Below, piece after piece: positions 6,685 through 61,934 of a stretch of DNA of 64,000 bases. Each line of letters begins with the position of its first letter. Within the stretch, counting starts at the first letter, position 1. The notes under the pieces were generated by a model. That model saw only the letters and a list, made by a program, of their open reading frames with translations, had not been told where the DNA came from and ran no database searches. A program made the translations under genes and the position numbers. The DNA is from an uncultured Methanosarcinaceae archaeon. GTDB lineage: Archaea; Halobacteriota; Methanosarcinia; Methanosarcinales; Methanosarcinaceae. The stretch spans positions 256,001 to 320,000 of the forward strand of contig CAWHXP010000007.1 in the NCBI GenBank assembly GCA_963833425.1, given 5' to 3'.

Positions 6685-7976
6685 AACACTATCAATAAAT
6701 ACTTTTTTTAAGATTAATTGGTAAATTTCAGTAATTTAATTTTGTTAACTATAGCTATTACTTTGTTTCTCTTTTTCCATTAGTTAGTAATTAGAAATAT
6801 TTATTACTTCAAAATCAATATAAATCGGCTGTTTTTGGTAGGTTGGATGGCTGCTTAAAGAGTTATTCGTTGGTCATCGGTTACGGAATTATTTCCTTCT
6901 TAATCCTACCTTTTTTGACTCCTATTACATTATATATTATTTCAACAATTCCTCGCAAAATCTTCCAATGTTTACGTGTGGATCTTATTCTTGATTTCTA
7001 TATACACTCATTTCACACATTGAGCTAATATAGCGAAGTGGGAATATATGAAATTCAACATTCTATAATTTCGGTTTTATCGAGTAAAGTCAACGCAGTA
7101 AATATCATTTCAAATATCGTGGAGATACATACCGATGTCGACATCGCGTGTATAGCAAACGCATCTGGTATTTGCTTTGTAATGTATTAGCTAAAAAACC
7201 AAGGAAAATTTGAGATCAGTTCAAATTAGCATTACAGATGCCACAGCTAAAAGTTCAGCAGATTTGTACTGCAGTGTAATTATTATAGTTAACAGCAATT
7301 GGAGTGTGGTTTAGTTAGACGCCCTCGTTCCAGTTGCAGTTGAATTATTCGAATTGAGAAACACCATAGTTTAAACTTAATGATCTGATAACTTTTTACT
7401 TATTTCTTTTCAGTTCCTTTAAGCTGATTTAGATAGGTTTTCTGCAAAGCTCAAAAATTATCTCTTCTTTTTACGACCTAAAGTTAAAGGGTTCTATACA
7501 GAATACTTTCATTCGATTCCTCAAGATTGGAAAATTTCAAGACCTCATTATGGTTGATCTATTTACGGGTGTGATTTACACCGAAGTTCTAATGTAAGTT
7601 TATAGCTTAGTAAAAATATAATTAAAGGATCAAATAGATTCCTTGATTCTTGTGCTTACCTCAAAATGGGGGAAATTAAGTTGCTTATAATATTTTCAAT
7701 GGTAAGAATAATTCTGATAGAGATCATATATTGTCGGTAGGAGTAATTTAATAAGTTTCTAGTTTAGTTTGGGCGTTGGTCGATAAAACAAGACTATGGA
7801 TATGAATTTTATTTAACTATCAAAATTAGAATTTTAATTATTTTTTATCTGTAAAATCTTAATTTTTCCGAATATTTGACCTTCATACACAAAAAGTCAA
7901 GGCAAAAAGTTTTTGATGACCTGAATACAGTATAAAATTAATTAATGTTAACACAAATACTAGTTGGAGATTTCCT

Positions 7977-8922
7977 ATGCCTACAAAGAATAATATACTT
8001 GTGACAGGTGGAGCCGGATTTATAGGGAGCCACTTGGTTGATCGCCTTATAGAAGAAGGAAACAGAATTACTATTTTTGATAATCTGAGTTCAGGAAAAA
8101 TTAAATTTATAGAGAAACATCTTGAAAACACTGATTTTACATTGATTAAAGGAGACATTCTTGACCATGAAAGGATAGAAAGAGCTTGCAAAGATATTGA
8201 CCTAGTTTATCATATAGCTGCGAATCCAGATGTCAGGCTTGGGACTTCAGATACTAAAATCCATTTCGATCAGAACATTTTAGCAACATACAATCTTCTG
8301 GAATCTATGAGAAAAAACGAAGTTAAAAAAGGTAGTATTTACCTCCACCTCTACAATTTATGGAGAGGCACAAATCATGCCAACTCCAGAGAATTACGGC
8401 CCCCTGATACCTATATCACTATATGGCGCTTCCAAACTTGCCTGTGAAGCTCTTATTACCGCATATTCTCATACTTTTGATATCCAAGCATGGATCTTCC
8501 GTTTTGCAAATATTGTCGGCTCTCGTAGCACTCATGGGATTATTGTTGATTTCATCCGAAAACTGCGAGAAAATCCTACCCAGCTGGAGATTTTGGGTGA
8601 CGGTAAGCAGGAAAAGTCCTATTTGCATGTATCAGAGTGCGTCAATTCGATATTGTTTGCAATAAAAAAAAGCAGAGAAGATGTAAATATTTTTAATATT
8701 GCCTCAGAAGATACCATCAGTGCTACAGAAATAGGAAAAATTATTGTGGAAGAAATGGATCTTTCTGATATTAAGTTTAACTACACTGGGGGGAGCAGGG
8801 GCTGGAGAGGTGATGTAACAAGGATGAGATTAGACATCGAAAAACTCAAGGCCATAGGATGGAAGCCTGCCTATACGTCAGAGAGGAGCGTGAGGGAAAC
8901 TGTAAGATCATTGATTACTTGA
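7977..8922 (+). CDS. NAD-dependent sugar epimerase/dehydratase, split by one frameshift in an A-run near 8325-8331
   Basis: TGGAGFIGS Rossmann motif and YGASK catalytic motif. The two ORFs join as VKKVVFTSTSTIYGEA after a 1-nt correction. Confidence 0.9.
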
Positions 8923-30291: not shown

Positions 30292-31040
30292 TTAGAACGT
30301 TGCGTGAATTGAGAACCATTTTTAAAGCAACCGCAGGAAACAAAATAATAACGACTGACTATTTCGCAGATTGAACCGCGAATTTTAGCTCAGGTATCAA
30401 AAGATGCCGAATATTTATCTTGGCATACAAAGAAAATAGAGACCTACACAAGCTTACAGCTTCCAAAATAGTCAAGAAACCGATGGATGAAGTCGATATG
30501 AAAGATAGTAGCATAGCCAAAACCGTAAATTTTGGTATAGTTTATGGCATGGATGCTCTTGATTTGCAAAAAAAGCTCCAAGCAGCAGGAACTGAAGTTA
30601 CAGAAAATGAAGCAAAAGAAATAATCGAACAGTACTTTAAGGCCTATCCTGGCGTTGCTAAATATCTAAGAGATGTCAGTATACAAGGGTTGAAAAATTT
30701 AGAAGTAAGAAGCCTTTCTGGAAGATTGATAAAATTTGAATCTTTGAGAACTAAAACAGAGCGAAGTAATATTAGACGGGAATCAAAAAATCTTCCTATT
30801 CAGTCACTGTGTACTGACATGATTAAAATAGCAATGACAAATATTTTTCGGCAGCTTGAACCTAAAAGTGTGAAATTCATAAATACTGTTCATGATGAAC
30901 TTGTTTTTGAATGCGCAGAAGCCCAGGCCGATGAAGTGAAAAATATCGTAAAAGAAGAGATGGAAAAAGCCGGATCACTATTTTTAAAAGATCTTCCATG
31001 TATCGCAGAATTCAAAGTAAGTGATACTTGGGAAAAATGA
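30292..31040 (+). pseudogene. polA: C-terminal (palm/fingers) fragment of a family A DNA polymerase
   Basis: Motif A D-Y-S-Q-I-E-P-R-I-L-A upstream of the called ORF (about 30356-30390, across an indel); motif B AKTVNFGIVYG; N.PIQS..TDMIKIAM; motif C VHDELVFE. The N-terminal part is absent. Confidence 0.9.
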
Positions 31041-41058: not shown

Positions 41059-42312
41059 ATGGGAAAATTCAAAATAAAATGTCTGAAGTGCGGAAAAGAA
41101 TATGGTCATCAGTACAGGCTCACTTGTGAGAATGATGACTCCATCTTGAGGGCGGAATATTTTGAAAAAATGCTGAATCTACGAAATCAGCCAGGTATGG
41201 GAAGGTTTCATTCCTGGCTTCCGATCCAGGAAGAGACTTACTACGGATGCAGGTCCCACTACCTACAAAAGTGAGGCTTTTGCAAAGGAACTCGGGCTTT
41301 TAAACCTTTACATAGGATTCAGTGGTTATTGGCCCGAAAAAGGATCTTTTATCAAAACCTGCAGTTTCAAAGAACTTGAAGCTTACCCTACCATGCAGTT
41401 TCTAAAAGAAAGCGGGGGAAAAGCTATAGTCCTTGCCTCCGCCGGAAATACTGGTAGGGCATTTGCTCACGTCTCGGTCTTAACAGGGGTAGAGGTCTAC
41501 ATAGTAGTGCCAAATTCTGGAATTTCACATTTGTGGCTGCCCGAAGAACCGAATCGAATCCGTTCATTTGATAGATATGAGCCCAGGGAACGACTACACT
41601 GACGCTATCAACCTTGCAGCAAGAATTGCACAACTGCCTGGATTGATCTCCGAAGGCGGCGCCAGAAATATCGCCCGAAGAGATGGGATGGGCACTGTGA
41701 TGCTGGATGCAGCAGTAACCATAGGAAAAATGCCTGATCACTATTTCCAGGCAGTAGGGAGCGGGACCGGGGGGATTTCGGCATGGGAAGCTTCCTTGCG
41801 CTTAAAGGCCGACGGGCGATTCGGGCAGAAACTTCCGAAAATTGCAGCTTGCTCAAAACCTTCCTTTTGTACCCATCTACAATGCCTGGCAGGCAAAAAG
41901 AAGGGAAATTATTTCTGAAATTGATATGAAGGATGCTAAGAAGCAGATAGAGGAAACTTATGCATCGGTCCTTACAAATCGGACTCCTCCTTATGGCATA
42001 AAAGGAGGACTATACGATGCACTTGTCGATACTGATGGGGTAATGTATGCAATAACCAGAGAAGAAGCCCTCGAGGCTAAGACCCTTTTCGAATCTCTGG
42101 AGGGAATTGACATACTGCCCCCATCGGCAGTTGCTGCAGCCTCCCTGTTAAAAGCAGTAAAAACCGGAAATGTTGGGCTGGAAGATATCATTCTCCTGAA
42201 TATTGCAGGTGGGGGTTACATACGGCTAAAAGAAGACTTCACACTTTTTCAGATCTCACCGGTAGCTCATGCCAAAAACCCAGATGTTCCCTTAGAATAT
42301 CTAAAAATTTGA
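41059..42312 (+). CDS. Cysteate synthase (PLP-dependent, coenzyme M biosynthesis), split by about three single-base frameshifts
   Basis: TCSFKELEA, ASAGNTGRAF, EGGARNIARRDGMGTV, YFQAVGSGTGGI, LLNIAGGG; directly upstream of comDE. Confidence 0.9.
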
Positions 42313-48147: not shown

Positions 48148-49396
48148 ATGTATTCTCTGAAATGTATCGAATGCGGTGCAGAGTATTCCAAAGATGCAAT
48201 AATCTATACTTGCAGCAAATGTGACGGTCTGCTTGATGTTATTTATAATTATTCCTCAATCGAGATCGATATGGATAAACTAAAGACTGAATGCCCCTCA
48301 GTCTGGAAGTACGCAAAACTTCTTCCTGTAAAAAGAATGCCAGTAACTCTCAAAGAGGGAGGGACTCCTCTTTACAAATGCGACCGTCTTGCCGAAAAAA
48401 TAGGAATAAAAAAACTGTACGTAAAACACGAAGGTATGAATCCAACAGGCTCCTTCAAGGATAGGGGAATGACAGTCGGGGTTACGAAAGCACTTGAACT
48501 CGGAATGAAAACATTTGCTTGTGCGTCTACAGGGAATACCTCTGCAGCTCTTGCGATCTATGGGGCAAAAGCAGGCGTTCCTGTAGTTGTGCTGCTACCT
48601 GCAGGAAAAGTAGCTCTTGGAAAAATTGCACAGGCTTTGATGCACGGGGCAAAGGTCCTAAGCATCCGTGGGAACTTTGATGACGCACTCGCTCTTGTGC
48701 GTACTCTCTGCTACCAGGAAAATATCTACCTTTTAAACTCAATCAATCCTTATAGATTGGAAGGCCAAAAAACCATTGGTTTTGAGATTGCAGACCAGTT
48801 AGGTTTTAGGGTGCCTGACAGAGTTGTCCTTCCCGTAGGGAATGCAGGGAATATTACTGCTATTTATAAAGGCTTCAAGGAGTTTAAGATACTCGGTATA
48901 ACGAATTCTCTTCCGAAGATGACAGGAATTCAGGCAGAAGGCTCCTGTCCCAGTTGTAAAAGCTATAAAGAGTGGAGCTCCAGAGATAACTCCGGAAGGC
49001 AATCCTGAGACAATTGCAACAGCAATCAGGATAGGAAACCCTGTCAACTCCAAAAAAGCTCTCAGAGCAATACGGGAATCCGGTGGAACTGCAGAGTCAG
49101 TTACTGACGAAGAAATTCTCGCAGCCCAGAAGGATCTTGCAAGGCTTGAGGGGATCGGGGTCGAACCTGCGAGTGCAGCATCGGTCGCAGGACTTAGGAA
49201 ACTTGTTAAAATGGGCATAATAAACATAGATGAAACCGTGGTATGCATCACTACCGGACATCTTCTAAAAGATATATCTTCTGTTAGTGAGATTTGCGAG
49301 GAGCCTACTGTAGTGGATGCAAATATCGAATCTATCCGGGAAGCTATCCTTGGAAGGATGAGTAAAAAAGAAAACAATTTAGTGTCGTGTCCTTGA
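48148..49396 (+). CDS. thrC: Threonine synthase, with one frameshift near 48950
   Basis: EGMNPTGSFKDRG, ASTGNTS, PVGNAGN, then PETIATAIRIGNP, EPASAAS and TGHLLKD in the shifted frame. Confidence 0.93.
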
Positions 49397-49717: not shown

Positions 49718-52625
49718 ATGGAGCATGACTATAAACCTCATGAGATTGAACAGAAATGGCAAAAAAATTGGACTGAAAGCCGAATTTTCCAGGCAGAACC
49801 GAATAAACGGGAAAAATTTTTCATAACTATCCCCTACCCTTACCTTAACGGAAATCTCCATGCTGGGCACACCAGGACTTTTACTATAGGGGACGTAGTA
49901 GCCCGGCATAAACGGATGCTAGGATATAATGTGCTTTACCCCATGGGCTTTCATGTAACCGGTACTCCAATCGTGGGACTTGCGGAACTAATTGCAAGCC
50001 GGGATCCCCAAACAATGGATGTCTACGAACATCTCCATGGAATTCCAAAAGATATTCTCCCTACCCTTGAAACGCCTGAAAATGTCGTTGATTACTTTAA
50101 ACATGAGGCTGAGAAAGCAATGCGCATGATAGGGTATTCTATTGATTGGAGACGGAAGTTCACAACCACGGACCCTACTTACAAAAAATTTATACAATGG
50201 CAATACATACGTCTTGCGGAAAAAAACCATAATAGTCAAAGGCTCTCACCCTTTAAAATGGTGTCCTCACGACAACAACCCTGTAGAAGACCACGACATA
50301 CTTCATGGGGAAGACGCCACTATCGTGGAATATACCCTCATCAAATTTAGATATAAAGACCTAGTCTTTCCTTGTGCAACCCTCAGGCCGGAAACAACTT
50401 ACGGAGTAACAAATCTCTGGGTCAATCCGAACGTGGATTACTTAAAAATCAGGGTTGAAAAAAACAGATGCGAAGAGTTCTGGGTTGTAAGCAGGGAAGC
50501 TTTCCGAAAATTAACCTTTACGGACAGGAAAGTCGAGTATATTGAGGATATACCTGCAAAATCCCTAGTAGGAATTAAACTCACAAATCCGATAACAGGA
50601 GATAAAATAATTTCCCTTCCTGCTTCTTTTGTCAGGCCTGAAAACGGAAGCGGAATCGTAATGAGTGTGCCTGCACATGCGCCCTTTGACTACTTGGCAC
50701 TTCGTGACCTTTATGATGTTGATTTGCGTGATTATGGAATAACCGAAGACTTGAAAGAGATCAAACTGACTTTCCCTTATAAAAGTACCTGAATTTGGAG
50801 AATTCCCGGCAAAAGAAATCGTAGAAAGTATGGGAATAACAAGTCAGAGTGATAAAAGAGCTGATGAAGCCACGAAGATTGTATACAGGAGAGAATTCCA
50901 TGGTGGAATACTCAAAAAGATCACTGGAAAATACGAAGGATGTTCAGTCTCGAAGATCAAGGATATCCTTACTAGGGACTTAATCAGTTCGGATGCAGGA
51001 GAACTATTTTATGAACTCAGTGAGCCAGTGGTTTGTCGCTGCGGTACACCATGTGTCGTAAATATGGTAAAAGGCCAGTGGTTCCTTAATTATTCAGATC
51101 CTGAATGGAAATCGAAAGTTTATAAATGCCTTAGCAAGATGCGGATTATTCCTGAAGAGTATAGGGTTGAGTTTGAAAACAAGGTTGATTGGCTAAAGGA
51201 CAAAGCATGCGCTCGCAAAAAAGGCCTTGGAACCCGTCTGCCTCTTGATAAGGAATGGCTAATCGAGTCCCTAGGGGATTCGACAATTTACATGAGTTAT
51301 TACATAATTGCCAAATTCATAGAGAAAGGCGACCTGGCTCTGGAGCAGCTTACCCTTTCTTTCTTTGACTACATACTGCTCGGAAAAGGTAATAATGCAG
51401 CTGTTTCTGCAGAAACTGGTATTGAGTCAGGGATCCTGGAAGAAATCCGCAGCGATTTTACCTACTGGTATCCTGTGGACTTACGTTCTTCCGGGAAGGA
51501 TCTTGTTCCGAACCATCTTCTTTTCTTCCTCTTCCACCATGTAGCCCTTTTTGGGGAAGAAAGCTGGCCCAAGGCTCTTGCTGTAAATGGATTTGTTTCC
51601 CTTGAGGGGCAAAAAATGAGCAAATCCAAAGGGCCGATCCTCACTATGGAAAGTGCAGTAAGAGATTACGGTGCTGACATAACAAGAATGTACATACTTT
51701 CCACAGCTGAACAGACTCAGGATGCAGACTGGCATAAGACAGGAATCGAATCCACCAGAAGGCAGATGGATAGGTTTTACTCCTTTGCAGAAGATGTTAT
51801 AGAGAGTGGAAAACGTGGCTACATAAGCTCTGAGCTCAAGCAGATTGATCGCTGGATGCTTTCGCGGATACAGGGCTACATCCATAAAACAAATATTGCC
51901 CTTGACTCCATCCAGACAAGGGAAGCCATCCAGAATTCTTTCTTCTTGCTCATAAACGATGTAAAGTGGTACCAAAGGAGAGGGGGAGAGAATCTGCTAT
52001 ACTATGTGCTTGATAATTGGGTCAGGCTCCTAGCTCCCTTTATCCCACATATTTGTGAAGAAATTTGGGAGGCTATGGGACATGAAGATCCTGTTTCCCT
52101 TGTACAGTACCCTCTCTATAATGAAGATCTAATGAACGATGGCGCAGAACTCATTGAAGAAATAATTAAAGATACTTCTGGATGACATTGAAGAAATAAT
52201 ACGAGTAACAAAAATGACTCCTCAGAAAGTCCACCTCTATACAGCGCCTGCCTGGAAAGTATCAGTCATAAAAAAATATATATGTGAAATTAACCTAAAA
52301 GCTTCTATTGAGGCAGGTACTTTTATTAAAACCCTTATGGTAAATCCTGAACTAAGAGTATTTGGAAAAGAAATTCCAAAGTTAGTCCAAAAGATTATTA
52401 CCGAGTTCAAAAGCGGAGGTGCAGAAAGATATGAGATTTTTGATGGTCTTGGTTTAGATGAACAGGACCTTCTGAAAGAGTCAGCTTCCTTCCTGGAAAA
52501 AGAAATAGGCTGTCCCTGTTGAGATTCACAGTGCAGATTCTCCAGCTTATGACCCTGAAAAGAAGTCCAGGTTTGCAGAGCCTCTTAGGCCTGCTATTTA
52601 CATTGAAGGAAGAAATGGAGAGTAA
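49718..52625 (+). CDS. leuS: Leucine--tRNA ligase (archaeal type), split by about four single-base frameshifts
   Basis: PYPYLNGNLHAGH, ATLRPET, SVPAHAPFD, GKDLVPNHL, KMSKS, C-terminal AEPLRPAIYIE. Confidence 0.95.
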
Positions 52626-53413: not shown

Positions 53414-54373
53414 ATGGATTTTCAAGCTTCTGCTAAAAAACTTACAACTTCAGTCAAAAGTGCAAAAATAGTCCCGAATATGACTGTAGATGAGCTTGTA
53501 ACTGAATACGGTGGTTGTGCCTTTGGAGCAGGCAGGCTGGCTGAGGCTGTGGACATATATTATGAGATGCTGGCTTCCGAAAAAACGACTAAATTTTTTG
53601 GACTTGCAGGTGCCATGACTCCTGCAGGCATGAGAATAATCATTGCGGATCTCATACGGGATGGACACATCGATGTCCTTGTAACTACTGGAGCTAATAT
53701 GGTTCATGATACAGTTGAAGCTCTGGGTCTTCACCACTATAAGGATACAGATTGTTCAAACGATATCCAGCTGAGACATGAATGTATAAACAGAATTTAT
53801 GATGTATATCTTCCTGACCAGCATTTTGCCGATCTTGAGGAGTTTTTGCAAAGAGTTTATGCCGGGCTTCCGGAGGAAAAGCTCTCTATCCGGCAAGTCC
53901 TTACAGAAATAGGGAATAACTTGGATGACGACTCTTCCATCCTGAAAATCGCAGCAGAGATGGATGTTCCGATTTATTGCCCTGCTCTTCAGGACTCTGT
54001 GATGGGGCTTCAAGCATGGTTGTACAGGGAAGGAAATCCTCTGCATGTAGACGCATTTGCTGATATGCACGAATACATGGAAACATGCTATGAGGCTGAA
54101 AGTGCTGGTGTGATGTTGCTAGGGGGTGGAGTTCCAAAAAACTATATTCTCCAGTCCATGCTTGTGACTCCTAAGTCTTTTGACTATGCAATTCAACTTA
54201 CAATGGATCACCCGGAAACAGGTGGCTTGAGTGGAGCAACTCTTGACGAAGCCAAGTCTTGGGGAAAGGTAGGAGAAAATGCGAAATCAGTGACGGTATA
54301 CGCAGATGCAACTATCACTCTTCCGATCATTGTCGCAGCTGTGCGGACTCGTCTTGTAAAAGATGTGATTTAA
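53414..54373 (+). CDS. dys: Deoxyhypusine synthase
   Basis: [47 protein letters not shown]. Confidence 0.95.
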
Positions 54374-55037
54374 TGGAAAAGAATACGTGTATAATTCTTG
54401 CTCTGGACGTACTCGAGAGGGAAGAAGCACTGAGAATTGCGGAAGATGTTCAGGAATTTGTAGATGGAATAAAAGTAGGTTATCCCCTAGTACTTGCTAC
54501 AGGGCTTGGAATTATCAGGGAACTTGCCAATTTTGCTCCTGTAATTGCAGATTTCAAGGTTGCAGACATCCCAAACACCAATCGCCTGATCTGTGAGCAG
54601 GTTTTTGAAGCAGGAGCAAATGCAATTATTGTTCAGGGTTTTACTGGGAGAGACAGCCTTGATGCCTGCATTGAAGTAGCTTCTGAGTATGGAAAAGATG
54701 TTTTTGTTGTAACCGAAATGAGCCATCCGGGTGGAGCCGAATTTCTGCAGCCTGCGCAGAAATAATCGCAAAGATGGCCGCTGAAGCAGGGGCTTTCGGG
54801 CTTGTTGCCCCTGCCACCAGGCCTGAAAGGGTAAAAAAGCTACGAAATATTATTGGAGACGAACTTGCTATTATAGCCCCGGGAGTGGGGGCTCAGGGAG
54901 GGACAGCATCTAAAGCGATTTCTGCAGGAGCAGACTGGGTAATTGTAGGAAGGATTGTCTATAGGGCAGAATCACCAAAAAAGGCTATTTGCGAGATTGT
55001 TAAGGAAATTGATACTGAGCTTAAAGGAGATAGCTAA
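54373..55037 (+). CDS. pyrF: Orotidine 5'-phosphate decarboxylase, with one frameshift near 54760
   Basis: [45 protein letters not shown]. Confidence 0.95.
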
Positions 55038-55133: not shown

Positions 55134-57269
55134 GGATCTGTAGAAATCCTTAATTTGATGCAAATTGTCTCTATAACTTTTTTGTTTATATTGTATACTA
55201 TTAATTTAATTTTAATCTCTTTTACTTGATAACGGAATTTCCTTGCCCTAAGTGTCTCTCGTAATTTTCTTTTAACTACAAAAAACATCTTCTCTGTTAT
55301 ATTTCTTTGATTACATTTGATTTTGTCAAAGACCAGGTTCAATTGCTTTCTGTATTTTCCACTTATTTTCTTCCTTTTTCTCTCTCTTACAGGTATAATT
55401 AAATCTGCTTTGATTTCTTCTCTAATTATAGAGAATTTCAATAAACTTCGGATTTTATTTCTTAGCAGTAATTTCTCATATCTTCCCATCAATTTCTCTA
55501 TTTAATTCCTCTTTTTGGCTTTACTTTATTCTCAATTCTTTGATTTTAAAGATAGCTTCCGCTATCTTCAATATACTTTTTTTATTTTCAATTTCCTCAA
55601 TTGATGGAGATTATAACAAAAAGCCGTACACAACATTTTTAGATTTACTCTTTTAACAGTAGTAACAAAAACTCTTCCTGCTTTGAAAATTTCTTTAGTT
55701 ACTGAATTGATTCTTTCCCGTTGAACTCTTTTTGAGCTAATTTTCTTATTTCTGAATATATCCTTTATTCCCAGCGTATGTCCTTTGACTGCTCTTTTCA
55801 TTGTTGCATTATACCCTTTAGTTTTTGCTCCAAAGTATCCTCTGTCCTTATAAACCACTTCATTTTCCTCTGTCAAATCTACATACGAATCATGTACTGA
55901 CGCAGTTGTTGTTTGAATCTTCTGATCAGCTCATAATCTCTGTCTATTATATTATGAAGCTTATATCCAAAGTGAGACTTACCTCCCTTCTTTGTCCATG
56001 TTCCGTCTCTGTTTCTTCTTGTTTTTGCCTCATCTCTCTCCTTTTGCATGTCCTGAATCTGAATGGATAAAAGTAGCATCCTGAATCATTCCCTGCTTTA
56101 TCTGTAAACCCAGAGCATCAAGTTGGCTTTGCAACTTTCCCTATATTTTCTTTGAAATTCTCGATAATTCTCTCCCTAAATAGCCATACAGTAGTACTGT
56201 AAGGTACGTATTCCGGAAATCCAAGGAATTTCCTAAAAGAAATTCGATCTATACACTGTTTCTCAAGTTCAAAATCAGAGAGACCATGCCATTGTTGTAA
56301 AACAAGCATTTTGAATATCACAATGACATTAGTTTCAGGTATCCCTCCTGAAACGGTTTTGTTAATATACATAGACTAAAGAATAATACGAAACGTTTTC
56401 CAATCAATTAAGGAAGCAATTTCAGAAAGCTTATCTCCAACAGATTCAAGAAGTTTATACTATTTTTAAGAGCAAAATCAGTAAGAGTTTTCATGAATAT
56501 ACATAAATATTGACAAATTTAAAGCCAACCATGCTCAAGAGCAGGGAGGTTATCGAAATTCTCTATAGAATGTATTTTTTCTGAATCGTATCCTTATCCA
56601 TTACATAACAATCAGACTTTCTCATCTTATTTGATTGCCTTATCAGAGCACTTGCATGTTTGATTTCATGGTCTATTTTTTGGCTAATTTTCCATCCCAA
56701 TATTACCTTTTTACTTGTATCTACTGATATTGAAGTTCTCAGGAAGCTTCTTCGAAGCTTCTCTGTTCTTCTGGAATAATAATTATAACTTGCATATGAA
56801 CTCGTAAATCCTGTTGCATCAATCGCTGCAACAGAGGCATTTTCTCGATATGAGTAAAACAACTTTAGAATCCTTGACAGAAGAAGGTTAAACAGAGAGG
56901 AAGGAATCCTAGTTATAAACTTTTGAAGGGTAATGAGATGTGGAATCTTATCAAGAGCAAATTTTTCTTTTATATCCTCATAAAATCAATGAGTTCTACA
57001 AAATCTTGATAGGCTATACTAATATACCCTTTCAATAAAATCAGTACAAGAAGCTGATGCTGGGTATAAACATATTTTGAATACTTGCAGGAATAAAACT
57101 TCAGTCTCGAAGACTGAACTGTTTCAAGGCTAGTATCAACAAATTTAATGTACTTATTAAATTTTAATATTGAATATTCCTTCATTTTTAGTGAAAAAAT
57201 AAGAAAATATTAGAACGGAATAGTTATAATATAGTGTAAAAGTCCAGTTTGGAGCATTTCTACAGAGCC
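55134..57269 (-). mobile_element. IS5-family ISH1-group element (~1.0 kb without its insert), interrupted by a second IS
   Basis: TIRs ggatctgtagaaat / atttctacagagcc; 8-bp TSD cgtaaatc at 55126-55133 and 57270-57277; transposase motifs YTQHQL and AIDATGF. Confidence 0.92.
55431..56563 (-). mobile_element. IS5-subgroup element (1133 bp) nested in the ISH1-group transposase; its own transposase is disrupted
   Basis: TIRs gagaatttcaataaac / ggttatcgaaattctc; 4-bp TSD tata (55427-55430, 56564-56567); motifs LQQWHGLSD, DRISFRKFLG, FGYKLH, DRGY. Confidence 0.92.
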
Positions 57270-57336: not shown

Positions 57337-58120
57337 CTATGATGAAAAATTTAGCTGATTTTATGATGAACCCTATGAGTTCTGAGGCATCAAAATCGAG
57401 TGTCACATAAATTAAATATTAAGAAAACCACGAGTAGAATATTTAAACTAGTGAATGCTGAAAACTTCCTAAAGTCTGAAGAGCTTTCAGGATGTAATCT
57501 GGAAATTTTGAGAAAGTATTTCAGATATTTGAGGCATGAAGGGAATAGAGAAAGAACCGCTTTAAACCATATGGAGAATATGATATGGATATCGAAGGCG
57601 ATTCATGAGTGCAATTTGGGAAAACTTACATAGGATGATCTGTATCTCTTTTTTGATGCTTTAGAAAACTATACTTACACAGATAGGGCAAGTAAGGTAA
57701 AGAAATATTTTAATCCAACAAAGGAAACTCGAAAAGTATCTTTTAGGAAGTTCTTAAAATGGAACAAGAATTACGAGCTTCATGAAAAAATAAAATGCAA
57801 ACGACTCAAAGGACAGAAGCTTCCTAAAGACATCGAGTGTAAAGAAGATATTGTAAAAATGACTGAAGCAGGCGGCAATAGTCTGGATAGAGCCATTATA
57901 GCTTGTTTTTACGAGTCTGGCGCCAGAAGAGGAGAACAACTGGCTGTTAGCTCAAAAACATAGAGCTTGATGAATATGGGACTGTGATTACATTCCCGGA
58001 AGGTAAGACCGGAGCTCTGAGAGTTAGATTGATTTTCTCTGCTCCATACTACGGGAATGGATAGATGATCACCCCAGAAAGGATGACAGAGATGCACCTT
58101 TATGGTGCACATTGGAAAAA
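57337..58120 (+). pseudogene. Truncated tyrosine recombinase/integrase (C-terminal catalytic HxxR...Y region missing)
   Basis: Read through TAG 57631-57633 and two indels: RAIIACFYESGARRGE, EGKTGA.RVRLIFS.PY..EWIDDHP...DAPLWCTLEK; then an abrupt switch to the GRE gene. Start position approximate. Confidence 0.85.
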
Positions 58121-58130
58121 AGGGATCGCT

Positions 58131-60623
58131 ATGGAATGTGCTATAAAAGAAATACTGAGGGGTTCTACACCGCGCGTGCAGGAACTCTTAAAAGAACTCT
58201 TAAATAAGGCATTTTCAGATAGATCTTCTGAATGGTTTAAGGATAGTATGTTTCCTCCGGTTGGAAATGAAAATCTTTCTGTAATTGAAAGACGCGCCAT
58301 AAGCTTCAAAATAATGCTTGAGGCAATGGCTTCAAAAGAGAACTCAAAAACTACAAATACATACAGAATAAAAGAAAATGAACTTATTGTAGGAAACCTT
58401 CCAATGGGTTCTGTAGGCTTTGGAAAAGTTTATCCTCAGTACCTTACAGAGGAAGAAAGAAGACTTATCTCTGTAGCCAACAGGGATATGCAGTCTACAT
58501 TCGGTCATAATATACCTGATCATAAAAGGGTATTGGATAAAGGTATCAACTGGATAATCCAGCATTGCAAAGAGAAAATAAATGAAACAAAAAAATGGTA
58601 CTGAAACCAGTGAAACTAGAAAGAATAAAAAACTCGAATTTTACAAGTCAGTTATTATTTGCGGCGAGGCACTCATAAATTATGCAAAAGCATTTGCTGA
58701 CCTTGCAGACAGCTATGCTGATACGGAAAAAGATGCTTCAAGACAAACAGAACTAAAAGAAATTGCTAGGATATGCAGAAGAGTGCCTGCAAATCCCGCC
58801 GAAACATTCCATGAGGCAATACAAAGCGTTTATTTTGTACATCTGGCACTACATAGTACATTGGATTATATATCTCTTGGAAGGCTTGACCAGACACTTG
58901 ATCCATATCTTCAGAAGGACTTAAAAAAAGGTACAATTTCGGAAAGTAAAGGTTTAGAACTCTACGAATGCCTTCTTATAAAATGTGCTGAAAGAATGAA
59001 CACAAACCCCGAATACTTCTTAAAATATGATCACTCTTCATTTGGAGGAGTATTTGGAGACAGCCCCGTATTCCTTGATCAGATAGCATCTGCAAATAAT
59101 TTTCTTCAGAATATTGCATTAGGCGGTCTTACAAAGGACGGAAAGGATGCATCAAATTTGAGTACTATTTTTACTATTTTAATACTGAAGGCATCCGGCA
59201 ATCTGGGTCTTCCAACTCCTATAATAAATATCAGACTAAATAAAAAAAGTTCTTCAGAAATCATAAATGAAACAGTAAGGTCACTGAGGCATGGCAGAAA
59301 CGGTATGCCTGCTGTGTTCAATGATGACATAATAGTAGATGGGTTAAGCAAAAATGGAATACCTATAGAAGAATGCCGCGACTATGGGGTTGACGGATGC
59401 TGGGAGCCTATTTTGAACGCTAAATGTGACTGGGTTTTCGGAATGGTAAACTTTCTTACAATACTCGAATGCAGTTTGAATTCAGGCTGTACCTTCAGTA
59501 TTGATTCAAGTTTGTTAAGAGGTGGAAAAGCCAGTTATATAACAAAAAGTCCAGCAGAAATAACGAAGTTTGATGAACTCCTGGAAAATGTGAGAACTCA
59601 CATTCAGTTCTTTGTTGACAAAACTGCTCTCCAGGCCTATTCATTTTATAGCGTAGAGGGCTCTGTTAATCCGACCCCTTTTTATCTTCACTTCTTGGAG
59701 GCTGCCTTGAAAAAGGAATGGATAAGACATGGGGCGGTACACAATATCACATTTCCGGTCTTCTTGCTGTTGCAATGCCTAACTGTGCAAATGCCCTTGC
59801 AAATATAAAGAAATTTGTATTTGAGCAAAAGAAATATACACTGCCTCAAGTTGTCGATGCTCTGAAAAATAATTTCAACGGCTATGAAGAAATGAAAAAT
59901 GCCTTCTGGAACGATAGTAACAAATTTGGAAATAACGTTAAAGAAGTTGATGCAATAATGAAGCAATTATTGGACTTCTCATATAATGCAGGGCTTAAAG
60001 CAAAAAAACTAGGTGATGAAACTTTTATATTAAATCCGAAAAAAGACTTTAAAAGAATTGAAAGCAACCGGACTATCTGCCATTATGAAGGTCAGTCAAT
60101 GCATAAAAAATACGGTGATGATTTTAATATGATATTCAATTTGGGCTGCGGTACATTCGGTCAGTACACCCTGATGGGCAAGAGTGTAGGAGCTTCGGCT
60201 GACGGCAGATGCAGTGGCAAGCCTGTTGCAGCAAATTTCTCACCTGTAACCGGAACTATGAAAAATGGGATAGGAAATGCCCTTGCTTCATTGAAGAATT
60301 TGGAATTGGGCAGATTCCCGGCAGGTGTTGCTGTTGACTATTGTATTGATGATACTAATGGCGAAAATGACGATGCTTATTTTGAGAACATTGTAAGAGA
60401 ATTCATAGAAGAAAACGGTAGTATCATGACTTTGACTTTTGCAAATACAGATGAACTGAAAAACGTATTCCAGATGTGTGAAGGAGTCCGAAATAAATTC
60501 CTTTCTTCGGAAGCATTGCGTCCGTATTCGCATATAGCAGTCAGAGTCGGAGGTTTTAACGCGCCATTTATAACAATACCAAAAGAGCAGCAATGTACAT
60601 ACTTAAACAGGATTACTAAATAA
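58131..60623 (+). CDS. Glycyl radical enzyme (~830 aa) of unknown substrate, split by two homopolymer frameshifts (~58590, ~59680)
   Basis: ELIVG, RVPANPAETFHEAIQ, SLGRLDQ, QNIALGG, Cys loop DGCWEP (about 59392-59409), ASADGR, Gly loop VRVGGF (about 60540-60557). Confidence 0.9.
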
Positions 60624-60638
60624 TATTATAAGCTTTAT

Positions 60639-61548
60639 ATGAGTAATTGGTAATACGAAATACTTTGATATTTTATGGAACTCTACGAAAGATGGCCCTG
60701 GTACCAGGGTTGTCCTTTTTTTACAGGGCTGCTCATTGCGTTGTGAATGGTGTCATTCTCCGCATTCTCAGCCCAAAGATGCTCCTGTGCTTTTTTATAG
60801 AGAGTACTGCACAAGCTGCGGCATATGCCAGGCTGTCTGTAAGGCAGGTTGCATCAGCTCCAATCAAAAGGGTTATACTTTTGACAGAACCGCATGCACA
60901 AGGTGCGGCAAATGTGTGCTGAATTGTAGTCAGGAAGCTCTGGTATATAATTTACGAGAAGATACACCTAAAGATATTTTTGATAAAATTATGCCTCAGC
61001 TAAAGCTCTTGAGAAACTTCGGAGGTGTTACCTTATCAGGCGGAGAACCCATGCTACAGTATATTGAAGCTCAAGAACTATTAAAGCTGTGCAAAAAAGC
61101 GGGCGTCCATACTGCAGTCGAAACTTCCGGATCCGTAGACTTAAAATGCTTTGAGGAACTGATTGAATATGTTGATTGTTGGCTTTTTGGTTTAAAACAG
61201 ACGGATGTTGATAAGTGCCACGCCATGACAGGTGCAGACTTTAATAGCATAAGGGAAAATCTATCATTTCTTGCTGGTAATGTGCCTTCTAAAATTATAA
61301 TAAGAACTCCAATAATTACAGGGTTTACCGATGACATTTGTAACATTCACGGAATATCTGAAATAATGTTGTCATATGGTTTGAACACTATAGAGCTGCT
61401 TCCATACAACCCTTATACTGGACATTATTACTTGGCAATGGGTAAAGGCTTTGATGAGCAAAAATTCGAAATTCTTGATCAGAATAGACATCAGGATATT
61501 GTGAAAATTTTTGAAGGCAAGGGGATTAGAGGGAAGTTGCTTATATAA
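60639..61548 (+). CDS. Glycyl radical activating enzyme (radical SAM) with 2x[4Fe-4S] ferredoxin insertion
   Basis: Upstream in-frame extension gives DGPGTRVVLFLQGCSLRCEWC (CX3CX2C); CTSCGICQAVC and CTRCGKCVLNC; GGVTLSGGEP, ETSG, ELLPY. The ATG at 60639 needs a 1-nt correction. Confidence 0.92.
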
Positions 61549-61590
61549 AATTGCTAAGGAGTATTAATTTAAAAATTGGAGGTAATTAAG

Positions 61591-61934
61591 ATGAGAGAAC
61601 TAATAAAAAATTTCAAAGCCATCTGGAATAAATAAATGAAAGCATTCCCTGGTCTAGACAGGCACCCATGATACAAATTAGTCTTTTTATTGCTGTAGCT
61701 GGTTTAAATAACAAAATATATGCAATGGGCAGAGAATTCACCTATCAGGACATTACAAGCCGTTTGGAAATTGTAGATCCCATTTCTGGAGTAGGGACCG
61801 CAAAAGCTCCTATGCCTACAGCAAGGACAATGCGTGCAGCAAGTGCAGCAAATGGTAAGATATTTGCGGATCCAAAAATAGCTTTTGTTGGTGAGCTTTG
61901 GAATGAAGAGGCTAAATTGAAACTGAGGGGATAG
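61591..61934 (+). pseudogene. Truncated kelch-repeat protein
   Basis: RBS ggaggt; WSRQAPM...AVAGLNNKIYAMG...EIVDP...TAKAPMPTART..ASAANGKIF, about 1.5-2 kelch blades, then unrelated sequence. Confidence 0.65.

Follow-up and report, generated by a model that had tools for sequence, protein, structure and literature searches.

A glycyl radical enzyme (GRE) gene followed by its activase gene, in the chromosome of an archaeon, raises the question of what this enzyme is, how it came to lie there and whether it could still work. The pair lies in a 64,000-nt stretch of contig CAWHXP010000007.1 (positions 256,001-320,000, forward strand; assembly GCA_963833425.1), hereafter called the window, whose own positions are used throughout. 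GREs perform chemically hard anaerobic reactions, and a GRE with its activase is a textbook pair. The host is Methanosarcina, a methanogen as originally predicted, and its topoisomerase shares 85% identity with proteins labelled Methanosarcina. This genus is known for its narrow substrate range, which the GRE copy, if functional, would extend by a catabolic radical enzyme. With moderate confidence, we favour a joint reading in which a piece of a foreign operon sits in the Methanosarcina chromosome, its GRE and activase are most likely intact, the breaks in their reading frames are assembly errors, and the GRE belongs to an eliminase-like clade.

The observation behind the original prediction, a full-length GRE of ~830 aa next to an activase with all motifs, was confirmed, and each motif was found where it had been placed (Table 1). 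The GRE is spread over three frames (58131-58589, 58594-59676 and 59679-60620), and two ATGs in the same frame, 58131 and 58065, are alternative start candidates; when the two breaks are bridged with X, all 830 codons are free of in-frame stops. The C-X-E pair is kept as C-W-E (59398-59406) and is invariant in the family. As had been noted, X is Trp and an Asp precedes it, two residues upstream of the Cys; all 20 relatives aligned share the D, G, C, W and E of the Cys loop and the V, R, G and G of the Gly loop, and VRVGGF aligns with VRVAGY of glycerol dehydratase. The window GRE retains 101 of 102 family-invariant columns, the sole miss being the X at a break, and four of 79 near-invariant positions are altered. 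A 9-base tandem duplication at 59164-59181 (+) adds three residues (IFT) relative to two relatives, P0001 and P0002, next to nearly invariant positions.

Table 1 Features of the GRE cassette and its borders, in window positions
Feature	Position	Strand	Remarks
IS transposase gene fragments (DUF772, DDE_Tnp_1)	55571-56985	-	Pfam; between pyrF and integrase remnant
XerD-like tyrosine integrase remnant, Methanosarcina	57439-58120	+	left cassette edge; tblastn with P0326
GRE gene	58131-60623	+	830 codons, PFL-like; stop TAA 60621-60623
Frame break 1	58589-58595	+	A7 run, one base too many
Cys loop GVDGCWEP	59386-59409	+	Cys codon 59398-59400, Glu codon 59404-59406
Frame break 2	59675-59683	+	CCCC TTTTT (C4T5) run, one base missing
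Gly loop VRVGGF	60540-60557	+	second Gly 60552-60554 aligns with radical Gly of glycerol dehydratase
GRE-activating radical SAM enzyme	60643-61548	+	frame open from 60643; TIGR02494 match
Activase CX3CX2C motif CSLRCEWC	60730-60753	+	
Activase first CX2CX2CX3C motif CTSCGICQAVC	60808-60840	+	
Activase second CX2CX2CX3C motif CTRCGKCVLNC	60895-60927	+	
Kelch-repeat gene remnant	61591-61934	+	~residues 1-106 of 320; frame change near 61630; right edge

The three pieces of the GRE score 26, 273.5 and 80.8 bits against the Pfam PFL-like model (PF02901; cut-off 24.3), and P0001, the closest intact relative, scores 420 bits. At the sequence level the C-terminal domain is divergent: Pfam Gly_radical (PF01228) found no match at E up to 1 in the window C-terminal piece or in P0001, and it is absent from the precomputed domains of the 120 relatives listed. 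An AlphaFold2 model of P0001 (mean pLDDT 84.8, pTM 0.88) matched more than 30 GRE entries in the PDB with Foldseek (query TM 0.73-0.78), so that the overall fold is predicted to be GRE-like, as judged on the P0001 model and not on the window protein. Every curated subfamily model nevertheless stayed under its cut-off on P0001, namely TIGR01774 (PFL2/glycerol dehydratase subfamily; 300 bits versus 678) and the equivalogs CutC (TIGR04394; 268 versus 1050), HypD (258 versus 1100), HpfG (257 versus 1000) and HpsG (243 versus 1000), and the window pieces scored below P0001; the original failure to match a characterised GRE is thereby borne out. So is the statement that the enzyme is not pyruvate formate-lyase (PFL), which we ruled out because the loop reads G-C-W-E with no adjacent Cys-Cys pair and P0001 reaches 43 bits on TIGR01255 (PFL), versus a cut-off of 994.

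The closest known systems are the diol dehydratases, glycerol dehydratase (Clostridium butyricum, 1r8w) and propanediol dehydratase (5i2g, 9rco), which provide both the top PDB sequence match (E = 3.3e-72) and, for the P0001 model, the best fold match (query TM 0.75-0.77); together with CutC they align to this model over its full length (TM 0.75-0.78, 21-25% identity). The clade shares with the diol dehydratases the C-x-E Cys loop, the R-V-x-G-aromatic Gly loop, a His aligned with glycerol dehydratase His164 and a long activase with two extra clusters. It differs from them in overall sequence (22-25% identity), in having Trp in place of Val at X, in the Asp preceding G-C, in the Phe found where glycerol dehydratase has Asp447, in its TIGR01774 score and in its C-terminal 200 residues, which align poorly with glycerol dehydratase (second stretch 7.7 bits). 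We take His164 and Asp447 of glycerol dehydratase to be substrate-binding residues of diol dehydratases; with numbering counted along the alignment, they align in P0001 with the family-invariant His130 and the nearly invariant Phe437, respectively. CutC, the GRE of greatest relevance to a methylotrophic methanogen, is the second sequence match (5fau, 9f3w; E = 1.2e-70, query TM 0.76-0.78) and also a CXE eliminase, but its TIGR04394 score indicates that the window GRE is not CutC, and the 61 loci of the clade show no microcompartment or choline-related neighbours. YbiW/PflD (8id7, 8id0, 8yjo), anhydro-sugar-phosphate GRE dehydratases solved with phosphorylated sugar-alcohol ligands according to their entry titles, are farther away (E = 2.4e-37 to 2.8e-46, query TM 0.73) and set a precedent for a GRE acting on phosphoesters. 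The PFL2 of Archaeoglobus fulgidus (2f3o; E = 2.1e-57), an archaeal dehydratase-like GRE whose entry title assigns no substrate, shows 22% identity and belongs to another clade; in our tree, the window GRE is nearest to sequences from bacteria-labelled records and not to other archaeal ones.

The ferredoxin-type activase of the original prediction is not unusual and proved to be an ordinary member of NCBIfam TIGR02494 (ORF 60643-61545; 231 bits, cut-off 174) with all three cluster motifs intact. Its start is the uncertain part. No ATG, GTG or TTG occurs in its frame between the stop TGA 60640-60642 and TTG 60736, which falls within the CX3CX2C motif, and ACG 60655-60657 occupies the place of the start ATG in the activase of L001, a locus in a Bacillota-labelled MAG that holds the nearest GRE relative (~80% amino-acid identity). 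An ATG is present at 60639 in another frame, so a single-base assembly error could mask the true start; the ACG-for-ATG exchange is a substitution and thus differs from the indel-type errors behind the other breaks.

The cassette is bordered by truncated genes. It starts 10 bases past an integrase remnant in which residues 1-228 of 397 are distributed over three frames, one of them interrupted by a TAG (57631-57633), while the C-terminal 169 residues are missing; in the protein search a 109-aa piece of it shares 87% identity with a site-specific integrase of Methanosarcina, and Pfam and PHROGs gave weak integrase matches (E = 0.011 and 0.0029). An 84-aa piece of the nearby IS transposase clusters with 54-182-aa fragments from other large contigs. 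DNA homology to L001 extends over 58154-61867 at 75.7% identity. L001 also has a DUF2278-LTD gene, which the cassette lacks, and a Kelch gene, most of which is likewise missing there; integrase sequence stands in place of the GGAGG ribosome-binding site of L001.

Are the genes broken in the organism or in the assembly? The GRE breaks are most likely assembly errors, not decay, because leucyl-tRNA synthetase (LeuRS) is split in the same window and whole in close relatives: it lies in five pieces (four breaks in 2.9 kb) that are 89-96% identical to P0245 (967 aa; 90% cluster), and relatives at at least 90% identity carry it whole. Threonine synthase is reduced to a 286-aa fragment with an out-of-frame tail, versus up to 405 aa in its cluster, and pyrF, a second PALP enzyme and an epimerase are split as well. 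Nine breaks per ~24 kb of recognisable genes predict ~1.3 in the 3.4-kb cassette, where two to three are seen, and homopolymer indels of the same kind occur within and beyond the segment. The original view that indels need correcting is thus borne out by LeuRS and threonine synthase, and the organism itself most likely carries both cassette genes intact. Programmed frameshifting was rejected, as the breaks run in opposite directions and in differing contexts and like breaks occur in unrelated housekeeping genes.

The alternative that survives best, which we hold to be unlikely without dismissing it, is that an old or aborted transfer left behind a non-functional cassette now in decay, in which at least some lesions are real and neither protein is made. 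Several observations speak for this reading or sit badly with the favoured one. Both ends are cut amid IS and integrase debris, the cassette lacks its own promoter and ribosome-binding region, and the operon partners of its closest relative are missing. The activase start went from ATG to ACG by substitution, a start at TTG 60736 would lose the first Cys of CX3CX2C, and the GRE contains the 9-base duplication and the four near-invariant changes. The cassette is also a singleton among ~15 billion proteins, which leaves its upkeep by selection in the lineage without support. The coding sequences argue against decay: the break density does not exceed that of LeuRS, a gene that cannot be dead, the invariant residues are retained without an in-frame stop, and dN/dS versus L001 is low (0.05-0.09 for the GRE, 0.15 for the activase). 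Furthermore, the end branch of the window GRE in the tree (0.13) is not longer than that of L001 (0.14), and the window activase holds a Cys in its second ferredoxin motif that the L001 activase is without.

If both proteins are made, a mechanism can be derived from family membership. The [4Fe-4S] cluster bound by the CX3CX2C motif of the activase would, with S-adenosylmethionine, abstract hydrogen from VRVGGF at its second Gly, and the resulting glycyl radical would oxidise the DGCWE Cys, giving a thiyl radical. The latter would remove a hydrogen from the carbinol carbon of a hydroxylated substrate, the Glu of C-W-E would accept the hydroxyl proton, and a neighbouring leaving group would be lost in a 1,2-elimination, so that a carbonyl product, probably an aldehyde, would leave the GRE. 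GRE eliminases include glycerol and propanediol dehydratase, CutC, HypD and IslA. From motif and fold, we infer that the enzyme is an eliminase; the missed TIGR01774 cut-off and the lack of a PF01228 match speak against that class. Within the original wording of a radical eliminase or decarboxylase, the CXE motif, together with the top matches by structure, favours the first term and makes the second less likely.

Alternatively, the protein could be an active GRE of another kind, for instance a decarboxylase or a GRE with other chemistry that has a Glu two residues after the Cys. We regard this as improbable, even though every eliminase model cut-off is missed, Phe stands at the position of glycerol dehydratase Asp447, and the models for indoleacetate decarboxylase and 4-hydroxyphenylacetate decarboxylase gave partial matches on P0001 (201 and 156 bits, respectively). 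A bulky Trp in the Cys loop points the same way, and we know of no characterised eliminase with this feature. The top sequence and fold matches, by contrast, are dehydratases and CutC, and the family has an invariant His in alignment with His164 of glycerol dehydratase. Decarboxylases and X-succinate synthases among the GREs carry a small-subunit gene, whereas clustering of the neighbours (ORFs of at least 70 aa) revealed no recurrent gene of this type near the GRE. An aldehyde:ferredoxin oxidoreductase beside the GRE in eight of 61 loci fits an aldehyde product, and CXE is given as the hallmark of GRE eliminases in PMC8473560.

As to its origin, the cassette appears to have been acquired horizontally, as originally proposed: the GRE pieces and the Kelch remnant form clusters of size 1, the nearest relative is Bacillota-labelled, and an integrase remnant forms the border. 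The flanking genes belong to larger clusters (cbiM 96, ThrC 51, LeuRS 38, DHS 20 and cbiN 9). In the tree the window GRE groups with L001 and P0002 (support 100), its identity to P0001 is 79-81%, and among the matches listed no full-length GRE relative exceeds 81%. The inserted piece, roughly 3.7 kb with the GRE, the activase and the start of the Kelch gene, would derive from a foreign and probably bacterial operon and lie among mobile-element debris in the Methanosarcina chromosome. In base composition, GC3 and codon usage the cassette is indistinguishable from host genes and from L001, so that these measures are uninformative on its origin or residence time; neither Rfam (gathering thresholds) nor ARAGORN found an RNA gene in the window, which therefore offers no visible tRNA attachment site. 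An assembly chimera or contaminant, with bacterial DNA misjoined to a Methanosarcina contig, would suit the singleton status, the Bacillota-labelled nearest relative and the visibly error-prone assembly, but is very improbable, since the segment lies well inside a contig of 355,583 bases, is flanked by genes of Methanosarcina type (upstream the integrase remnant, pyrF, DHS and LeuRS; downstream cbiM and cbiN), ends on both sides within truncated genes, like recombination scars, shares its homopolymer indel type with its surroundings and, at 75.7% DNA identity and dS > 1, is too diverged to have been copied from the bacterial contig sampled.

The GRE belongs to a populous, unnamed and unstudied subfamily, defined by sequence through its invariant D-G-C-W-E and R-V-G-G. 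A protein search found 326 full-length relatives, and a genome-contig scan, which missed the window's own genome though the window encodes both search patterns, found 61 loci with record titles from nine phyla. ESM Atlas returned generic GRE clusters only, and full-text literature searches yielded nothing on the D-G-C-W-E clade, in a coverage that mostly leaves out subscription journals, where a published characterisation may exist. To our knowledge, every GRE clade newly assigned to date has brought a new pathway to light, and this one is widespread, with a distinctive invariant active-site loop and a reaction yet to be assigned. Since the window copy is stripped, possibly inactive and known from a low-accuracy assembly, it is a weak starting point, and an intact bacterial relative would be the better experimental entry.

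The gene neighbourhoods of the clade provide a testable lead, namely the breakdown of phosphoesters or nucleic acids with subsequent oxidation of an aldehyde. A phosphoesterase or nuclease lies within two genes of the GRE in 38 of 61 loci, and these kinds together with aldehyde:ferredoxin oxidoreductase account for 44 of 192 near ORFs versus 2 of 139 distal ORFs scanned. These neighbours suggest a substrate linked with phosphoester or nucleic-acid breakdown, to which the YbiW/PflD precedent fits. Nothing observed favours the release of a methylamine or of a sulfur or nitrogen source. The original interpretation thus stands in part: a GRE other than PFL, horizontal transfer and indels hold up, whereas this kind of release does not.

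As a more specific proposal, doubtful as it is, the D-G-C-W-E clade might catalyse an undescribed GRE reaction, in which an organophosphorus compound or one derived from a phosphoester, such as a hydroxy-phosphonate, a phosphorylated polyol or a nucleic-acid breakdown product, would undergo radical elimination. A neighbouring HAD, PLD, metallophosphatase or nucleotidase protein would free the phosphate, the aldehyde:ferredoxin oxidoreductase would oxidise the aldehyde product, and members of the clade would have entered methanogens at least twice. If true, the GRE could give methanogens a non-canonical source of phosphorus or reductant. Among individual neighbours, the DUF2278-LTD protein has no relative in the PDB, and a 347-aa HAD-like protein has a sole match, the structural-genomics entry 4ovy, which carries no functional assignment.

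Two adjoining genes encode a PFL-like glycyl radical enzyme (GRE) and, beginning 19 bases past its stop codon, a GRE-activating radical SAM enzyme (TIGR02494, 231 bits against a cut-off of 174), an ordinary architecture for such a system. All three ORF pieces of the GRE match Pfam PF02901, and a tblastn search with P0001 (831 aa), the full-length protein closest to it, aligns residues 2-831 across three frames with 79-81% identity. Once located in the window sequence, every motif and coordinate in the original prediction of this pair proved right. In L001, the closest related locus, on a contig from a Bacillota-labelled MAG, the activase (L001 3747-4640) has a second ferredoxin-like motif that is one Cys short (CVRRGECVLNC); that of the window is complete, with all four Cys (CTRCGKCVLNC).

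Coordinates of the GRE-activase genes, their lesions and other features of the window
Feature	Position	Strand	Basis or remark
NAD-dependent epimerase, 2 pieces	7920-8919		split between frames
PALP enzyme (second one), 3 pieces	41177-42309		split between frames
Threonine synthase, 2 pieces	48148-49393		split between frames
LeuRS, 5 pieces	49718-52622		split between frames
pyrF, 2 pieces	54247-55034		split between frames
IS transposase fragments, farther upstream of cassette	55571-56985	-	Pfam matches
XerD-like integrase remnant, residues 1-228 of 397-aa Methanosarcina protein, three frames	57439-58120		catalytic C-terminal 169 residues missing
GRE and activase, adjoining	58131-61548	+	Pfam, NCBIfam, tblastn
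GRE frame break 1: A7 run, one base extra	58589-58595	+	P0001 comparison
9-base tandem duplication, three extra residues vs P0001 and P0002 (near relatives)	59164-59181	+	alignment
Cys loop GVDGCWEP	59386-59409	+	GRE motif
GRE frame break 2: CCCC TTTTT run, one base short	59675-59683	+	P0001 comparison
Gly loop VRVGGF	60540-60557	+	GRE motif
Radical SAM motif CSLRCEWC	60730-60753	+	activase
Two CX2CX2CX3C motifs	60808-60840, 60895-60927	+	activase

In the PDB, B12-independent glycerol dehydratase (E = 3.3e-72) and CutC (E = 1.2e-70) rank highest by sequence, and P0001 as modelled with AlphaFold2 (mean pLDDT 84.8) resembles dehydratases and CutC along its whole length (query TM 0.75-0.78, 21-25% identity). 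The Cys loop has the C-X-E motif typical of eliminases, with Trp at position X and Asp ahead of G-C, and 20/20 relatives share its D, G, C, W and E. Glycerol dehydratase His164 and Asp447, which we take to be substrate-binding residues of diol dehydratases, align with an invariant His and with a Phe, respectively. The family scores below every curated subfamily cut-off (TIGR01774, 300 vs 678; CutC, 268 vs 1050; HypD, 258 vs 1100), in keeping with the earlier statement that no characterised GRE matches, and shows no match to the Pfam Gly_radical domain. A PFL identity was rejected (43 bits against a PFL cut-off of 994). The GRE is thus a predicted eliminase-type enzyme outside all named subfamilies, in a previously unstudied clade whose active-site loop is distinctive.

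A genome scan yielded 61 GRE loci with record titles across nine phyla, 55-56 of them with an activase gene. Within two genes of the GRE-activase pair, 38/61 encode a phosphoesterase or nuclease, namely a 347-aa HAD-like protein (21 loci), 5'-nucleotidase/2',3'-cyclic phosphodiesterase, PLD-like protein, metallophosphatase, alkaline phosphatase, XendoU or non-specific endonuclease, and 8/61 an aldehyde:ferredoxin oxidoreductase; a DUF2278 cluster occurs at four loci, in three of them within two genes outside the pair. Phosphoesterases and nucleases make up 44/192 near ORFs (scanned from 196 of at least 100 aa, four being unscanned) vs 2/139 distal ORFs (a scanned random sample of 361), counts that are not independent events because related loci share synteny. 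Since phosphoesterases of four unrelated folds are found at this position in different lineages, the context suggests that phosphoester hydrolysis, radical elimination and aldehyde oxidation are steps of one pathway; the proposed release of a methylamine or a sulfur or nitrogen source finds no support here. None of these neighbourhood partners is present in the window. Some distal control ORFs are also phosphate-related: a phosphate-selective porin (L012 584-1696), an RNase T2 (L043 16014-17030) and an endonuclease/exonuclease/phosphatase family protein (L040 17506-18270).

The host of the window, on a contig of 355,583 bases, is by gene similarity Methanosarcina: its intact topoisomerase shares 85% identity with proteins that carry the Methanosarcina name and 98% with another protein. 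The GRE start codon lies 10 bases downstream of the integrase remnant. DNA homology to the 5.9-kb L001 contig spans 58154-61867 at 75.7% identity and takes in both GRE and activase together with the opening third of a Kelch-repeat gene, truncated in the window, which also lacks L001's upstream DUF2278-LTD gene and GGAGG ribosome-binding site. The cassette is therefore bounded by scars on both sides. Among ~15 billion proteins neither the GRE pieces nor the Kelch remnant cluster with any other sequence (cluster size 1; flanking genes: cbiM, 96; ThrC, 51; LeuRS, 38; DHS, 20; cbiN, 9), and full-length GRE relatives among the matches listed are at most 81% identical. In a FastTree phylogeny built from the window read-through, 56 GREs from the loci (780 aa or longer, shorter ones being left out) and 27 of 120 listed database matches, 84 rows in all, the window GRE groups with L001 and P0002 (support 100). 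Scarred edges, singleton clusters and this grouping make the predicted horizontal acquisition by Methanosarcina well supported. The L001-like, Bacillota-labelled donor is a weaker assignment, given that L001 is a short contig placed by binning; base composition and codon usage did not discriminate as to cassette origin. Methanogen loci L023 (Methanospirillum), L030 and L054 (both Methanosarcinales) branch apart as a clade of their own, across the family's main split from the window GRE, so that independence of the window acquisition from theirs is likewise well supported. All three are MAG contigs with activase-GRE pairs; in L054, the second gene downstream encodes an aldehyde:ferredoxin oxidoreductase.

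Indel correction, which the original prediction had advised, was indeed needed, as LeuRS and other housekeeping genes are split likewise. The LeuRS pieces are 89-96% identical to P0245, an intact protein of 967 aa from the same 90% cluster (n=38), and threonine synthase ends at 286 residues plus an out-of-frame tail, with cluster members (n=51) of up to 405 residues; both genes are unbroken in close relatives. Barring a second copy, a LeuRS broken four times would not be survivable, and frequent indel errors in the assembly are the simplest reading. By our own count, 9 breaks per ~24 kb of recognisable genes predict ~1.3 in the 3.4-kb cassette, where 2 to 3 are observed.

Two lesions are not typical indel errors, the 9-base duplication and an ACG codon (60655-60657) that aligns with the ATG of the L001 activase; the window activase frame is open from 60643 with no canonical start 5' of the radical SAM motif, and the ATG at 60639 is one frame off. 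We lean slightly towards a GRE and activase that are intact and probably active in their Methanosarcina host. That the cassette is instead a decaying remnant is possible but rather unlikely: the GRE retains 101/102 columns invariant across 20 relatives (the single miss is an X at a break), departs at 4/79 nearly invariant columns, contains no in-frame stop in its read-through, and shows low dN/dS against L001 (GRE 0.05-0.09, activase 0.15; dS 1.3-2.0) and no lengthening of its end branch. The GRE itself thus appears free of signs of decay. An assembly chimera is very improbable.

Several minor observations accompany these results. The integrase remnant has an in-frame TAG (57631-57633) in place of a Glu codon (GKLT*DD vs GKLTEDD in a relative); TAG can be decoded as pyrrolysine in Methanosarcina. 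The IS transposase fragments share 90% clusters with 54-182-aa fragments on other 250-640 kb contigs, so several copies of the element are apparently broken alike. Some GRE relatives (~1300 aa) carry a Dyp-type peroxidase fused at the N terminus, an odd joining of a haem peroxidase to an oxygen-sensitive radical enzyme: among six database proteins of the GRE clade (P0042-P0044 and P0047-P0049; ~1260-1308 aa), five have Dyp-type peroxidase families in precomputed Pfam, and P0042 scores 87 bits with TIGR01413, under the cut-off of 100.5. A full-text search, with most subscription journals outside it, found no literature pairing the two. Finally, a 221-aa ORF (30375-31037, +) corresponds to the C-terminal half of a family A DNA polymerase domain (PF00476, E = 3e-51); archaeal chromosomes do not usually carry such a sequence, which may have been left by a provirus or plasmid.
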